From NCBI GenBank assembly GCA_965250285.1, contig OZ252299.1, positions 1 through 64,000 on the forward strand: DNA of 64,000 bases, read 5' to 3'. Positions 1,924-7,440 of the stretch are shown in pieces. The position numbers and the translations under genes were made by a program. Source of the stretch: Myxococcota bacterium (GTDB taxonomy: Bacteria; Myxococcota_A; UBA9160; UBA4427). The notes under the pieces were generated by a model. That model was given only the letters and a program-made list of their open reading frames with translations. It had not been told where the DNA came from and did not search any database. Within the stretch, counting starts at the first letter, position 1. Each line of letters opens with the position of its first letter.

Positions 1924-2670
1924 ATGTCCGGTCACTCGAAATGGTCGACGATCAAGCGCAAGAAAGGCGCGCTCGACGCCAAGCGCGGGAAGATCTTCAC
2001 CAAGCTGATTCGCGAGCTGCAGACCGCGGCGCGGATCGGCGGCGGTGACCCCGACACGAACCCGCGGCTGCGCCTGGTGGTCGACAAGGCCAAGCAGGCC
2101 AACATGCCCAAGGACAACATCCAGCGCGCGATCGACAAGGGCGCCGGCGGTGGCGAGGGCGAGTCGTTCGACGAGGTCGTGTACGAGGGCTACGGGCCCG
2201 GCGGCGCGGCGATCTTCATCGAGACGCTGACCGACAACAAGAACCGCACCGTCGCCGACGTGCGCCACGTCCTCTCGAAGAACGGCGGCAATCTCGGCGC
2301 GTCGGGCTCGGTCGCGTACCTCTTCGAGAAGCGGGGGCTGCTGAGCTTCGAACGCGACGGCGTCGACGGCGACGCGCTCATGGAGGCAGCGCTCGAGGCC
2401 GGTGCCGACGACATCGTCGAGAGCGACGACGCGATCGACGTCGTCACCACGCCGGGCGACTTCGAATCGGTGAAGACGGCGGTCGCCGAGGCGGGCTTCG
2501 AGCCGGCCAACGCCGAGGTCACGATGGAGGCGAGCACGAAGGTCGCGCTGACGGGCAAGGACGCCGAGCAGATGCTGCGTCTCGCCGATGCGCTCGAAGA
2601 CCTCGACGACGTGCAGAACTTCTACGCGAACTTCGACATCAGCGACGAAGAGCTGGCCCAGCTCGCGTAG
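1924..2670 (+). CDS. yebC: YebC/PmpR family protein
   Basis: MSGHSKWSTIKRKKG...YEGYGPGG...LEDLDDVQNFYANF. GAGG upstream of ATG 1924. Canonical position before ruvC. Confidence 0.96.
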   Translation: MSGHSKWSTIKRKKGALDAKRGKIFTKLIRELQTAARIGGGDPDTNPRLRLVVDKAKQANMPKDNIQRAIDKGAGGGEGESFDEVVYEGYGPGGAAIFIETLTDNKNRTVADVRHVLSKNGGNLGASGSVAYLFEKRGLLSFERDGVDGDALMEAALEAGADDIVESDDAIDVVTTPGDFESVKTAVAEAGFEPANAEVTMEASTKVALTGKDAEQMLRLADALEDLDDVQNFYANFDISDEELAQLA

Positions 2671-2675
2671 CTCTC

Positions 2676-2970
2676 GGCTTCACCAGGACGCGGGACCGCG
2701 GGATCGCGAGAAACCTGGCGCGCGAGTACAGACGATCTTCGCGCTCGCGAACCTCTATGCGATGCGACCCAAGCCGACGCGACCGGAAGCGAGTGCTGCG
2801 CTGTGACCGAAGCATCCCGAGGCCGGGGCAGGCGGGGGTACCGCGCGCAGTTCGCAGGCGCGACGTGCGCGACATACGTGCTTCCCAGGAAGGTCGCGCC
2901 GAGAATGTCTGAGCACGGTGCCCCCGCCTGACCCGGCCCGAGCACGGCGGGCCGTGCAGACGTGCCCCAG
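2676..2970 (+). mobile_element. IS5-family right-end relic (degraded transposase tail, hairpin unit, terminal IR-like end)
   Basis: Encodes ...QTIFALANLYAMR...*, homologous to 7018-7147. Ends GTGCAGACGTGCCC-CAG, similar to the end of the second copy. Confidence 0.65.
2821..2938. repeat. ~120-bp long imperfect palindrome, copy 1
   Basis: ggccggggcaggcgggggtacc...ggtgcccccgcctgacccggcc outer stem and ggcgcgac/gtcgcgcc inner stem. Similar copies at ~7162-7279 and ~7297-7409. Confidence 0.85.
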
Positions 2971-3092
2971 GCCCGCACGACCGCGACCTCCCTGAGCGCT
3001 CGGGCTTTCGCCTCGCTTGCGCCTCGGCGCCATGCCCCTCATTCTCTCCGCGAGCGCGCGGGCCTCTCGCGCCGCGCGCCGGGGGGATCCGC

Positions 3093-3659
3093 ATGCGAAT
3101 TCTGGGCGTCGACCCGGGTTCGTCGGTCACCGGGTTCGGCGTGATCGAACGGGCCGGCTCGGGTCGCCGTGGCTTCGTCCACGTCGCGCACGGCACCCTG
3201 CGCACACCGCGCGGCGCCTCCCTCCCCGAGCGGCTCGAATCGATTCGCAGTCGCCTGTGTGACGTGGTCGCCGAGCACCGGCCCGACATCGCGGTGGTCG
3301 AGCGCGTCTTCGTGCACGCCAACGTGCGCTCGGCGCTCGTGCTGGGTCAGGCGCGCGGCGTCGTGCTGGCCGCCATGGCCGCCGGGGGCATCGAGGTCGA
3401 AGAGGTCGCCCCGCGCGAGGTGAAGAAGGCGGTCACCGGCACCGGCGACGCCGACAAGGCCCAGGTGAAGCAGATGGTGGCGCGGCTGCTCGGTCTCGAG
3501 CGCGAGCCGCCCAGCGATGCAGCCGATGCCCTCGCGCTGGCCCTGCACCGCGCCCAGGCCGGACGCCTTGCCGGCCTCGACGTGCGCACCCGCGCGCGAC
3601 GTCGCAGCCGCCGTGATCTCGCAGCGCTGGTCGAAGCAAGGGAGACCCCCCCGCGATGA
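3093..3659 (+). CDS. ruvC: Holliday junction resolvase RuvC
   Basis: MRILGVDPGS, VERVF, LGQARG, VKKAVTGTG.ADKAQV, DAADALALA. Confidence 0.96.
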   Translation: MRILGVDPGSSVTGFGVIERAGSGRRGFVHVAHGTLRTPRGASLPERLESIRSRLCDVVAEHRPDIAVVERVFVHANVRSALVLGQARGVVLAAMAAGGIEVEEVAPREVKKAVTGTGDADKAQVKQMVARLLGLEREPPSDAADALALALHRAQAGRLAGLDVRTRARRRSRRDLAALVEARETPPR

Positions 3660-3925
3660 TCGGTCGAGTCGAAGGCGTCCTGCTCCGTATCGCACTCTTG
3701 GTCACGCCCAGCCTCGACGAGGGGGAGCGCCCGCAATGATCGGTCGAGTCGAAGGCGTCCTGTTCCGTATCGCACTCTTGGTCACGCCCAGCCTCGACGA
3801 GGGGGAGCGCCCGCAATGATCGGTCGAGTCGAAGGCGTCCTGCTCCGTTTCGCACTCTCGGTCACGCCCAGCCTCGACGAGGGGGAGCGCCCGCAATGAT
3901 CGGTCGAGTCGAAGGCGTCCTGCTC
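3656..3925 (+). repeat. 3 x 80-bp tandem repeat plus 30 bp of the ruvA start; each unit is a 27-aa mini-ORF
   Basis: Units begin at 3656, 3736 and 3816 and differ at only 1-3 nt. Each reads MIGRVEGVL(L/F)R(I/F)AL(L/S)VTPSLDEGERPQ* with its TGA overlapping the next ATG. Confidence 0.95.
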
Positions 3926-4507
3926 GAGCGCGAGCCCTCCCATGCGCTCGTCGACGTGAACGGCGTCGGCTACGAGCTGCTCATCTCACTGCGCACCTTC
4001 GAGCAGCTGCCCGAGCCGGGCAAGACCGTCGCGCTGCACGTGCGCACCGTCGTGCGTGAAGACGCGATCACGCTCTTCGGCTTCGCTTCGGGGCTCGAGC
4101 GGCGCACGTTCGATCTGCTGCTGCGCGCGAGTCGCGTGGGGCCGAAGCTCGCGCAGGCGATCCTGTCGGGCGTCGAGCCCGCGCTGTTGCTGCGCGCGCT
4201 GCGCGACGGCGAGGTGGCGGTGCTGAAGCGCTCGCCGGGCGTCGGCCCCAAGCTCGCCGAGCGCATGGCCCTCGAGCTGCGCGATCGCGCGGCCGACGAG
4301 CTGAAGATCGGCGCGCCCGACGCGGCGGAGGGCTCCATCGACGCCCCCGCTGAGGATGTCTCGACGCAGCTGCTCTCGGCGCTGCTCAACCTCGGCTATC
4401 CCCGCGCCCAGGCCGAAAAGGTCGCCGACAAGGCGGTGCGTGAGGCCGGCGCCGAAGCCAGCCTCGAGTCGGCGATCCGCGTCGCGCTGAAGCACCTCGC
4501 GCCGTAA
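3896..4507 (+). CDS. ruvA: Holliday junction branch migration protein RuvA
   Basis: VDVNGVGYE, VREDAITLFGF, VGPKLAQAIL, PGVGPKLAERMALEL, ALLNLGY. Confidence 0.95.
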   Translation: MIGRVEGVLLEREPSHALVDVNGVGYELLISLRTFEQLPEPGKTVALHVRTVVREDAITLFGFASGLERRTFDLLLRASRVGPKLAQAILSGVEPALLLRALRDGEVAVLKRSPGVGPKLAERMALELRDRAADELKIGAPDAAEGSIDAPAEDVSTQLLSALLNLGYPRAQAEKVADKAVREAGAEASLESAIRVALKHLAP

Positions 4508-4542
4508 CGCGGCTCGCTCACCTCCGCTCAACCGATCGCGCG

Positions 4543-4607
4543 CCCGGTTCGCCCGGGCCGACACAGGGTCGACCCGGTTCGCCCGGGCCGACACAGGGTC
4601 GACCCGG
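4543..4607. repeat. 2 x 30-bp tandem hairpin repeat between convergent ruvA and csp; possible terminator or REP-like element
   Basis: cccggttcgcccgggccgacacagggtcga occurs twice. Each copy has a cccgg/ccggg stem, and a gggtcgaccc palindrome spans the junctions. Confidence 0.75.
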
Positions 4608-4629
4608 GCGGGTGGGACGTTCGCCCGAC

Positions 4630-5094
4630 CTAGCCGGCGAGCGACTCGCAGGCCTCGGCGCAGGTCTGGCAGGCCTCGAGGCAGGCCTTGCACTCGGCGT
4701 GCTTGTCGGCGTGCGGCTCGCAGGCCTTCGCGCAGTCAGCACAGAACGCGCCGCACACGGCGGCGAGCTCGCGCGTGCGCTCGCTCGGCTTCGTCTCCGA
4801 AGCGGCCACCGCGTTCATGGCGAGCACCACGGCCTGCATGCGGTTCGCGCTCGCGAGGCACTCGGCGAGCGAGGTGTCTCCGTCGCCCAGCAGCTCGATG
4901 CAGTGACGAATGCAGTCGCCGGCGGCCGCGTCGCAGTCGGCCGTGGTGACCCGCACCTTCGTGAGCTTCGGGTCGATGGCGCCGTGGTGGCCGTGGCCAC
5001 CGTGGTCGGCGTGAGACGCGGCGGCGGTCTGACCCGCGACGCCGGCCGCGGCCAGTCCAGCCGCGGCGCTGATGACGAATTCTCTTCGGTCCAT
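4630..5094 (-). CDS. Tat-exported four-helix-bundle copper storage protein (Csp1/2-like)
   Basis: MDRREF twin-Arg signal, His-rich linker, 13 Cys mostly in CxxC/CxxxC repeats (CGAFCADCAKAC, CKACLEACQTCAEAC). GGGAGG RBS. Confidence 0.88.
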   Translation of the reverse strand: MDRREFVISAAAGLAAAGVAGQTAAASHADHGGHGHHGAIDPKLTKVRVTTADCDAAAGDCIRHCIELLGDGDTSLAECLASANRMQAVVLAMNAVAASETKPSERTRELAAVCGAFCADCAKACEPHADKHAECKACLEACQTCAEACESLAG

Positions 5095-5231
5095 GATGGA
5101 TCCTCCCGGATCTCCTGCCCGCGCGACCATCGCGTCGGTGCAGGGATCTCGTTCGATGAATCGAGTCGCAGTGCGCGCCGGGTGGGTCACCGACGCGTGA
5201 GCGTCAGGTGGGTCACCGACGCGCGGGCGTC
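5095..5231 (-). promoter_or_regulatory. Structured intercistronic RNA: 2 x 25-bp double-hairpin repeat and hairpins next to the csp RBS
   Basis: ggtgggtcaccgacgcg(t/c)g(a/g)gcgtc at 5181-5205 and 5207-5231. On the mRNA, gatccctgc/gcaggagatc and gatcc-ggga-ggatc stems compete around the SD. Confidence 0.55.
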
Positions 5232-5672
5232 TCAATTCAGCAGAACGACCGTGTTCTCGGCGAAGCCGGGATAGGGGGGTGGGATCCAGTGCGCGCGGCT
5301 GCCCGCGGTGGCCGTCGCCGGGGCCGGGCCCGTCCACGGATGCGGCGGGAGCGCGAGCCAGGTCGCGTGGGCATTTGGCTCGAACGTCGCCTGGGCCGGC
5401 GGGACGCTCTCGGCGAGGCCATCGCAGCCATCACACTCGCAGTCGGCCATCGGCGGACTGCTCGGGTCCGCATCGATCGGCGCCTCGGCGTGGCAGGGCG
5501 GCGTCGAATGCGCGTGGGCGCTCGGTTCGCTGGGACCGACGGGGCTGCCTGCGTCACCGGACACGCGGCAGTGCGGGCAAGCGAAGCCGAGCACGAGGAG
5601 TGCGACCACCCAGGTCGTGGCGACCCGGGCGAGGCGGCGTGCGCGGTGCGTGTTCGAGGCAGTCTGCGTCAT
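5232..5672 (-). CDS. Cys/His-rich signal-bearing protein with Pro-rich C-terminus (DUF2946/CutF-like candidate)
   Basis: Hydrophobic N-terminal segment, CPHC, HAH..PPCH, CECDGC, terminal WIPPPYPGFAENTVVLLN. Directly upstream of csp. Alternative start at 5708. Confidence 0.65.
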   Translation of the reverse strand: MTQTASNTHRARRLARVATTWVVALLVLGFACPHCRVSGDAGSPVGPSEPSAHAHSTPPCHAEAPIDADPSSPPMADCECDGCDGLAESVPPAQATFEPNAHATWLALPPHPWTGPAPATATAGSRAHWIPPPYPGFAENTVVLLN

Positions 5673-5885
5673 GACTCGATCGAGAAGGTAGGGCAGGGCG
5701 GTCCACATGGACCGCCGACGTGATTTGGAAGCCCGGCCGCGCCTCCGGGTTCCATCGGCACCCGGGCGGCGGCGCTGGATCGGCCGGCCCTCTCGAGCGC
5801 CTCAGCCGCCCGGCGCCGAGCGATTCCAGTCGGACTGCGATATGACACGGGTTGCCCCCCGCGCACGCCCCACCGGGAGAGTCGC

Positions 5886-6908
5886 ATGCCGGTCGAGAAC
5901 GAGTCCGCCCGAGACACCGTCGACCCCGGTCTGCACGACGGCGAGCGCAATCAGGAAGACTCGCTTCGCCCGCAGCAGCTCGACGAGATGATCGGGCAGG
6001 ACAGGCTGCGCGAGAACCTCGAGGTCTTCGTCGGAGCCGCGCGTCGGCGCGACGAGGCCCTCGACCACCTGCTCTTTCACGGCCCGCCGGGGCTCGGCAA
6101 GACGTCGCTCGCGCGCATCGTCGCCGCCGAGATGGCTGCGCCGTTTCGCGCGACGAGCGGGCCTGCGATCGAGCGGCCGGGCGACCTCGCGGCGCTGCTC
6201 TCGAACGTCGAGGCGGGCGAGGTGCTCTTCATCGACGAGATCCACCGGCTCTCGCCCACGGTCGAAGAGATCCTCTACCCGGCGATGGAGGATTTTCAGC
6301 TCGACATCCTGATCGGCGAAGGGCCGAGCGCGCGCAGCGTGCGCCTCGATCTCCCGCGCTTCACGCTGGTGGGCGCGACGACGCGCGCAGGTCTGCTGAC
6401 GTCGCCCCTGCGCGACCGCTTCGGCTGGACGGCTCGCCTCGAGTACTACCCGGTGCCCGATCTCGAGCGCATCGTGCGGCGCAGCGGCCGGCTGCTCGGC
6501 GTCGAGGTCGAGATCGATGCGGCCGGCGAGATCGCCTCGCGCTCGCGGGGCACGCCGCGCATCGCCAATCGCCTGCTGCGCCGGGTGCGCGACTTCGCCG
6601 AGATGCGCGACGGGGTGGGCAAGGCGGTCGGGCTCGAGACCGCGCGCTACGCCCTCGATCGCCTCGAGGTCGACGAGGCCGGCTTCGACCGCCTCGACCG
6701 GCGACTGCTCGAAGCGCTGATCGACAAGTTCGACGGCGGGCCGGTGGGGCTCGCGACGCTGGCCGCCGCGGTCGGCGAGGACGAGGGCACGCTCGAAGAC
6801 ATCGTCGAGCCGTTTCTGATTCACCACGGCTATCTCGACCGCACGCCGCGCGGCCGCGTCGCCACGGCGCGCGCCATCGAGTTCTGGAAGGCGGGCGACG
6901 GCACCTGA
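5886..6908 (+). CDS. ruvB: Holliday junction branch migration ATPase RuvB
   Basis: [52 protein letters not shown]. Confidence 0.97.
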
Positions 6909-6962: not shown

Positions 6963-7440
6963 TATCACGGACACGCGCGCGTGGTGCGCACGCGTTCCGC
7001 ATCGTGAAGCAACTCTGGGGCTTCCAGCAGACGCGCTACCGGGGGATCGCAAAGAACCTGGCCCGGGCGCAGACGATGTTCGCGCTCGCGAACCTCCACG
7101 CCGTGCGACACAAGCTCATGCCACCGGCAGCAAACGCTGCGCTCTGACGGAAGCGTCCCGAGGCCGGGGCAGGCGGGGGTACCGCGCGCAGTTCGCAGGC
7201 GCGACGTGCGCACCATACGAGCTTCCCAGTCAGGTCGCGCCGAGAATGTCTGAGCACGGTGCCCCCGCCTGCCCCGGCCCTGGCACGGCGGACCGAGGCA
7301 GGCCGGGAGACCGCGCGCAGATCGCAGGCGCGACGGGCGCAACAAACGAGCTTCCCAGGCAGGTCGCGCCGAGAATGTCTGAGCACGGTGCCCCCGCCTG
7401 CCCCGGCCCTGGCAAGGCAGACCGTGCACAGGTTCCCTAG
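6963..7440 (+). mobile_element. IS5-family (IS5 subgroup) relic: transposase C-terminal fragment, two hairpin units and right end at CTAG
   Basis: SRTRARGAHAFRIVKQLWGFQQTRYRGIAKNLARAQTMFALANL resembles the IS5 tail R..VEH.F..IK..FGF...RY.G..KN....F.LANL, with the catalytic Glu lost. Ends GTGCACAGGTTCC followed by CTAG. Confidence 0.75.
7162..7409. repeat. Two tandem copies of the ~120-bp long palindrome unit
   Basis: aggtcgcgccgagaatgtctgagcacggtgcccccgcctg is identical in all three copies. The second copy here has a degenerate 5' arm. Confidence 0.85.

Follow-up and report, generated by a model that had tools for sequence, protein, structure and literature searches.

Three tandem 80-bp units between ruvC and ruvA of a Myxococcota bacterium: a probable local duplication tolerated as a chain of translationally coupled mini-ORFs

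The junction between ruvC and ruvA of a Myxococcota bacterium (GTDB lineage Myxococcota_A; UBA9160; UBA4427; assembly GCA_965250285.1) is widened by three tandem 80-bp units, each carrying a 27-aa mini-ORF whose start and stop overlap those of its neighbors. The array lies in the first 64,000 nucleotides of contig OZ252299.1, which is the whole stretch of DNA that was analyzed and is called the window here. It is probably a local tandem duplication of an ancestral overlap between the ruvC stop and the ruvA start, tolerated as a ribosome relay, and a by-product rather than a Ruv-specific device. Its status as a tolerated by-product is likely because the same layout recurs at eight other junctions of this genome.

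The window contains yebC, ruvC, ruvA, and ruvB. The ruvC gene (3093 to 3659, plus strand) encodes 188 aa with a match to PF02075 (E value of 6.7e-44), and its TGA stop codon at 3657 to 3659 lies inside the ATGA at 3656 to 3659. The ruvA gene (3896 to 4507, plus strand) encodes 203 aa with PF01330 and PF07499 matches, and ruvB (5886 to 6908) was confirmed by Pfam. In 31 of 31 loci of relatives, ruvA and ruvB are direct neighbors, but here they are split by about 1.4 kb (4508 to 5885) of opposite-strand genes, namely, a Csp1-family copper storage protein gene (4630 to 5094, minus strand; TIGR04401, E value of 7e-34) and a gene for a 158-aa protein (5232 to 5708, minus strand), which had no match in the family search. 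Two more short tandem duplications are found in this insert, at 4543 to 4607 (30 bp, 2.2 copies) and 5181 to 5231 (26 bp, 2.0 copies). A dispersed repeat family of about 119 to 146 bp, which has 38 matches of at least 100 nt in the genome and is very deep in public runs, occurs in the window at about 2760 to 2970 and 7164 to 7424, and both of these copies come after remnants of an IS5-like transposase tail (2676 to 2803 and 7004 to 7147). A search for promoter and terminator consensus sequences, which is a weak test at 69% GC, gave no hit in 2600 to 6000.

Tandem Repeats Finder (TRF) places the array at 3650 to 3925 on the plus strand, with a period of 80, 3.5 copies, and 97% identity. The units start at 3656, 3736, and 3816, and behind the last of them, at 3896 to 3925, come the initial 30 nt of ruvA itself. 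Mini-ORF1 (3656 to 3739), mini-ORF2 (3736 to 3819), and mini-ORF3 (3816 to 3899), all on the plus strand, each encode 27 aa, made up of ruvA codons 1 to 10 and 17 further codons, and each ends at the TGA within the ATGA that follows, the last of these stops lying inside the ATGA of ruvA. Four ATGA overlaps thereby link the ruvC stop, the three mini-ORFs, and ruvA, as the initial annotation had described. The 50-nt segments outside the ruvA copies are 96 to 100% identical to one another, which rules out a CRISPR-like array with differing spacers. The units differ by three substitutions in total, one in mini-ORF2 (3763 C>T, giving L10F) and two in mini-ORF3 (3849 A>T and 3859 T>C, giving I12F and L15S), and all three are nonsynonymous, an outcome with a chance probability of about 0.34. 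It had been pointed out that the mini-ORFs use all three frames and that the substitutions spare every frame, Shine-Dalgarno (SD) sequence, and overlap. Both statements are true, but the former gives no sign of design because any unit length of 2 mod 3 produces it, and the latter carries no weight, since three random substitutions would do the same with a P of about 0.55.

Each unit carries an SD-like sequence on the plus strand. That of unit 1, GAGGGGGAG, lies at 3719 to 3727, 8 nt ahead of the next ATG, and those read from the sequence of units 2 and 3 lie at 3799 to 3807 and 3879 to 3887, with the same spacing to the downstream ATG; the last is now the SD ahead of ruvA. The duplex of GAGGGGGAG with the 16S rRNA end has a predicted energy of -10.7 kcal/mol, compared with a median of -7.5 kcal/mol for 477 genes coupled by a 4-nt (-4) overlap. 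The own tail of ruvC offers AGGGAG, 12 nt from the ATG, at -8.6 kcal/mol, and the tail in the same-genus genome gives -7.7 kcal/mol. The array has the sequence features of a coupled gene pair, namely, a -4 overlap and an SD that lies within the preceding frame. Six segments of the region, including the three units, were all less stable on folding than their shuffles (z scores of +0.85 to +1.78; +0.85 to +1.31 for the units), which rules out a structured RNA or an SD-occluding switch.

The assembly and the unit number were assessed with read-derived contigs. In run X1, the flanking contigs stop exactly at 3685 and resume at 3896. The unit itself forms a 110-nt contig with a depth of 43.8, compared with 16.9 and 22.9 for the flanks; the resulting ratio of 2.2 fits the value of 2.1 predicted for three such units. 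In run X2, the unit 1 and unit 3 alleles lie on separate contigs at 11 to 15x, the common part has 42x, and the flanks have 28 to 49x; no unit 2 allele is present among the pieces listed. A misassembly of the three-unit array, against which the initial annotation had advised a check, is therefore unlikely and was ruled out as an explanation by the contig depth and the separate alleles. In run X3, the unit depth is 6.2x, compared with 11 to 13x for the flanks, and two contigs diverge from the window sequence, at 3086 and 4469, which makes a strain mixture likely. The depths in X2 and X3 suggest an average of fewer than three copies per genome, for example, a mixture of three-unit and zero-unit strains. 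Because the evidence consists of contigs with one depth figure apiece, and because the three public runs, which belong to one study, may include the source of the assembly, copy number polymorphism is suggested only. The proposal that the array expands and contracts by recombination is thus plausible from depth in two of three runs as far as copy number is concerned, while its tie to the Ruv pathway was not borne out. Two marine runs with a small share of the stretch, X4 and X5, showed only pieces of relatives, and one X4 contig joins ruvC to ruvA without units. The public runs listed as containing the stretch included no RNA runs.

A comparison with relatives shows that the array is restricted to this lineage. 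Of 40 relatives, 38 had a RuvA match. The ruv locus was taken from 29 of these, and one was excluded as its contig had no ruvC, leaving 28 order-level loci that hold both genes. In 26 of these, ruvC overlaps ruvA directly by 4 nt, and L031 (92% RuvA identity) and L032, which are the closest two loci from metagenomes, share this direct overlap. In the other two, L020 (1484 to 1504) and L025 (1454 to 1504), the junction is bridged by one unrelated mini-ORF of 6 and 16 aa, respectively, with ATGA at both ends, and the relay of L025 is built on a 24-bp duplication. The -4 handover is thus kept at all 28 junctions, directly or through a mini-ORF, and the distribution identifies the direct ATGA overlap, from sequence comparison, as the ancestral state. 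None of the relatives' ruv loci contain the three-unit array, and a DNA search of 67 other genomes of the family gave no unit-spanning match, with 26- to 72-nt pieces in the seven genomes that matched. Among the genomes searched, the array is present in this one alone.

The 50 nt that separate the ruvA copies were examined for their origin. The initial annotation had advised searching the genome for this segment next to other gene starts; no second copy exists in the 6.25-Mb genome, in which the longest other match is 16 nt exact or 19 nt with one mismatch. An exact 28-nt junction pattern had no match in metagenome contigs. A dispersed 50-nt element was ruled out on these grounds, together with the lack of a unit-spanning match in the 67 genomes. 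The segment is read in the same frame as a ruvC tail would be, and in BLAST the match to the same-genus genome continues for about 25 nt of its ruvC tail, where LDEG of the unit faces LVEG of the tail. When the global scores against three ruvC tails were summed, 14 of 477 control tails reached that value. Single-tail scores are weak, being reached by 38, 30, and 103 of the 477 controls, and ungapped identities are 18/50 to the own ruvC tail and 22/50 to that of L031. Local alignment scores were reached by 80 and 345 of 2,000 shuffles, and end-anchored scores were reached by 9 and 173 of 2,000. The junction ahead of the proteasome alpha gene of this genome offers a parallel, in that the ends of its 80-bp copy are conserved and the middle is unrecognizable. 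The 17 non-ruvA codons are probably a decayed ruvC tail, an assignment that we hold with moderate confidence.

The genome carries a general load of 25- to 85-bp tandem duplications. With a period of at least 25, a match of at least 80%, and one dispersed family removed, TRF gave 194 arrays, of which 61 straddle a stop codon alone (11 expected under random placement), 12 straddle a stop and a start (8 expected), 6 straddle a start alone (13 expected), 54 are intergenic (15 expected), and 61 lie inside genes (147 expected), 58 of these in frame. Outside coding frames, the duplications cluster at unit lengths of about 33 to 46 and 70 to 84 bp; they are enriched at stop codons, convergent stops the most (36/81). 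The same-genus genome has 6 arrays in 213 kb (28 per Mb, compared with 31 per Mb here), four of them with 36- to 39-bp units; G016 has 38 arrays in 400 kb, which are mostly of low complexity and hence not comparable. As to a driver of duplication, searches gave no match to RVT_1 or Ku. MutS is present in the genome. A Cas1 gene lies at 3245666 to 3246523 of G000:C1, and a simple 24-mer count showed no CRISPR array in the neighboring 50 kb. The stop codon sits at no fixed place in the unit, which speaks against a site-specific or footprint origin. Of the exact two-copy duplications of at least 28 bp, three of six show microhomology of 0 to 1 nt, a sample too small to decide.

Mini-ORF relays like that of ruv occur at eight other junctions of this genome, so that the ruv array is one of nine. 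They precede genes for an LLM oxidoreductase (83-bp unit, one mini-ORF), pepN (35 bp, one), secY at the rplO-secY junction (35 bp, two), cdaA at the folP-cdaA junction (77 bp, four mini-ORFs of 26 aa), luxC at the luxE-luxC junction (43 bp, four), the proteasome alpha gene (80 bp, one), and two unnamed genes (26 bp, one; 41 bp, three). On G000:C1, these relays, given in another order than the genes above, lie at 1592906 to 1593271, 1211675 to 1211761, 4687506 to 4687668, 5104182 to 5104369, 582828 to 583009, 1102860 to 1102929, 4302251 to 4302310, and about 3420675 to 3420755. They are derived from their junctions, each with its own local sequence and length. In relatives, folP and cdaA overlap directly in 20 of 20 loci that hold both genes (4 of 24 loci lack the pair), and rplO and secY overlap in 18 of 19 loci and abut in the other.

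The lengths of the duplications bear the mark of a frame filter at overlapped junctions and at starts. Genes were called with a home-made caller (5,151 genes, 87% coding) that gives a small bonus to ATGA and GTGA starts, which is a caveat for all three censuses. In the stop-anchored census of 81 duplications, 71 lie at convergent or distant stops, 1 lies at a junction with a 10-nt gap, and 9 lie at overlapped junctions. At the 71 convergent or distant stops, the periods are frame neutral (27, 21, and 23 with 0, 1, and 2 mod 3, respectively), whereas the 9 at overlapped junctions comprise 8 relays, 1 in-frame extension, and no coupling-breaking case. Seven of the relays have a period of 2 mod 3 at -4 or -1 overlaps, and one has a period of 1 mod 3 at a -8 overlap. 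The difference between overlapped and other stops is significant (Fisher's P of 0.004), and the absence of a breaking case in nine has a P of 0.026. In the start-anchored census, 12 of 15 false starts lead to a stop that lies on the real start, against an expectation of 15% (P of 5e-8; 3e-4 at a one-third rate); of the other three, one is in frame and two belong to neither class. Doubly overlapped mini-ORFs bridge 176 of 2,628 codirectional gaps of 1 to 400 nt, and shifts by 1, 2, and 3 nt leave 60, 72, and 168, respectively. The surplus thus amounts to about 100 such mini-ORFs, and genuine small genes may account for some of it. Eight relay arrays were seen among 592 overlapped stops, where about three are expected by hand arithmetic from the rate at other stops, and relays may therefore be mildly favored or the other classes partly purged.

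The relay geometry at ruvC-ruvA is real and likely under selection, because all 28 junctions keep the -4 handover and none of the nine overlapped duplications breaks coupling; this much of the ribosome relay first proposed for the locus stands, and a role specific to Ruv is not supported. We propose that one 80-bp segment, consisting of about 50 nt of the ruvC tail and 30 nt of the ruvA start, was duplicated. A ribosome that finishes ruvC would restart at the false ATG, read 27 codons, and stop at the next ATGA, and the supply of RuvA would be largely maintained through the relay; duplications whose length lets translation from the false start run across the real start in another frame would be purged. 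The copied tail would then have drifted away from the original at the end of ruvC, and a subsequent event of slippage or unequal exchange would have produced three near-identical units. The 27-aa peptides would be by-products, and the copy number would drift among strains, changing the RuvA level modestly at most. The geometry, the ancestral overlap, the restriction to one lineage, the duplication load, and the frame bias at starts and overlapped stops are all direct observations. A diverged 50 nt beside an identical 30 nt requires long persistence together with homogenization, which pure neutrality fits poorly.

The divergence of the 50 nt, the stronger SD of the units, and the excess of relays (8 compared with about 3) leave room for a tuning or ratchet role. 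It is rather unlikely, though conceivable, that the length-biased duplication of this lineage (about 33 to 46 and 70 to 84 bp) makes a strain-variable, genome-wide layer of translational tuning, in which the ruv unit number sets the output of RuvA. If so, about 100 decayed relays and a handful of live multicopy relays would form this layer, a copy would have taken over the SD of ruvA, and the genome would be a natural experiment on selection for translational coupling. A ratchet of SD handover, in which, once the first copy existed, the true ruvC tail became partly worse at binding ribosomes and the copy acquired a stronger SD, so that full translation of ruvA now needs at least one unit and extra units tune output, is unlikely. 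It would accord with the unit SD being stronger and nearer than that of the own tail, with the persistence of the 50 nt for long enough to diverge, and with reports that repeat number in Mycobacterium tuberculosis tracks downstream expression (PMC2734929; PMC4803746, the latter citing others). However, the own tail still surpasses both the coupled-gene median and the same-genus tail, and the depths in X2 and X3 hint that molecules with fewer units or none occur alongside.

The initial annotation had suggested a Ruv-specific rheostat, in which recombination alters the unit number and the resulting RuvA:RuvC ratio feeds back on the Ruv pathway. The retention of the handover at all 28 order-level loci and the depth hints of copy number variation agree with such a device, but it is disfavored because the other relay junctions (folP-cdaA, rplO-secY, luxE-luxC, and those ahead of pepN and the proteasome alpha gene) are unrelated to recombination and because ruvB is detached from ruvA here. 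The array is also absent from the other genomes searched, and the slippage of short tandem repeats works without Ruv. We consider the rheostat very unlikely. Equally improbable is that the 50 nt are a foreign, mobile, MIRU-like element that entered at the ruvA start, duplicated 30 nt in doing so, and was then amplified. The order of 30-nt repeat, 50 nt, and 30-nt repeat would suit an insertion, the resemblance of the 50 nt to a ruvC tail is weak, and insertion at start codons with -4 coupling has been reported for MIRUs (PMC12548453). Against this stand the lack of a second copy in the genome, of the exact 28-nt junction pattern in metagenome contigs, and of a unit-spanning match in the 67 family genomes, and the derivation of the other relay arrays from their own junctions, with differing sequences and lengths. 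An action of the 27-aa peptides on RuvA or RuvC, also raised at the outset, is extremely unlikely. The peptides carry RuvA residues 1 to 10 and would be made at a predicted three times the stoichiometry of RuvA, but a Pfam search gave no match for them, the substitutions show no sign of constraint, no conservation is seen, and the relay peptides of L020 and L025 are unrelated.

Local duplication under selection for coupling, the reading that we prefer, can be set beside known systems. Translational coupling at -4 and -1 overlaps, including termination-reinitiation, has been described (PMC12548453; PMC6728339); it is reported to be most efficient at -4 to +3 nt and to be aided by an SD, and short ORFs can pass ribosomes to a downstream gene (PMC12548453). 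The ruv array agrees with this and resembles such pairs in having an ATGA overlap and an SD placed within the frame before it. Unlike simple coupled pairs, it performs the handover four times in series through three nonconserved mini-ORFs. The MIRUs of mycobacteria occupy 41 loci and are described as direct repeats of 40 to 100 bp that contain small ORFs (PMC5056196) and as insertions at start codons with -4 coupling and a minimal effect on expression (PMC12548453), and repeat number has been tied to downstream expression at some loci (PMC2734929; PMC4803746). The ruv units resemble these descriptions in being direct tandem repeats of comparable size (80 bp) between codirectional genes and oriented with transcription, in carrying small ORFs whose starts and stops overlap their neighbors by -4, and in having no obvious palindrome or stable structure. 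They differ in that MIRUs are described as a dispersed and apparently mobile family, while the ruv unit has no second genomic copy and opens with the start of its own neighbor (30 of 80 nt are ruvA). The ruv array works like a MIRU but is not classed as one, because no dispersed family was found.

A further parallel is VNTR3239 (ETR-F) at the rnc-fpg1 junction of M. tuberculosis, which is likewise a lineage-specific repeat that widens a tight operon junction before a DNA repair gene and whose variable length is reported to correlate modestly with expression (PMC2734929). It differs in its complex 55/79-bp structure, which starts 40 bp past the upstream stop, and the account of this locus describes an effect at the mRNA level and not a chain of overlapped ORFs (PMC2734929). 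A literature search, largely outside subscription papers and by title and abstract for ruv, found no ruv relay and no locally derived junction relays.

As a matter of Ruv biology, the array is of little weight, being one of nine such junctions in the genome. Its meaning lies in the contrast between duplications that are frame neutral at ordinary stops and frame filtered at overlapped junctions and starts, which is sequence-level evidence that selection protects the handover of ribosomes. With its three units, the cassette could be used as it stands to measure what share of translation persists through serial reinitiation. The array further suggests how repeats resembling MIRUs can form with no mobile element involved, and it illustrates one way in which operon genes that once overlapped can move apart and yet stay coupled.
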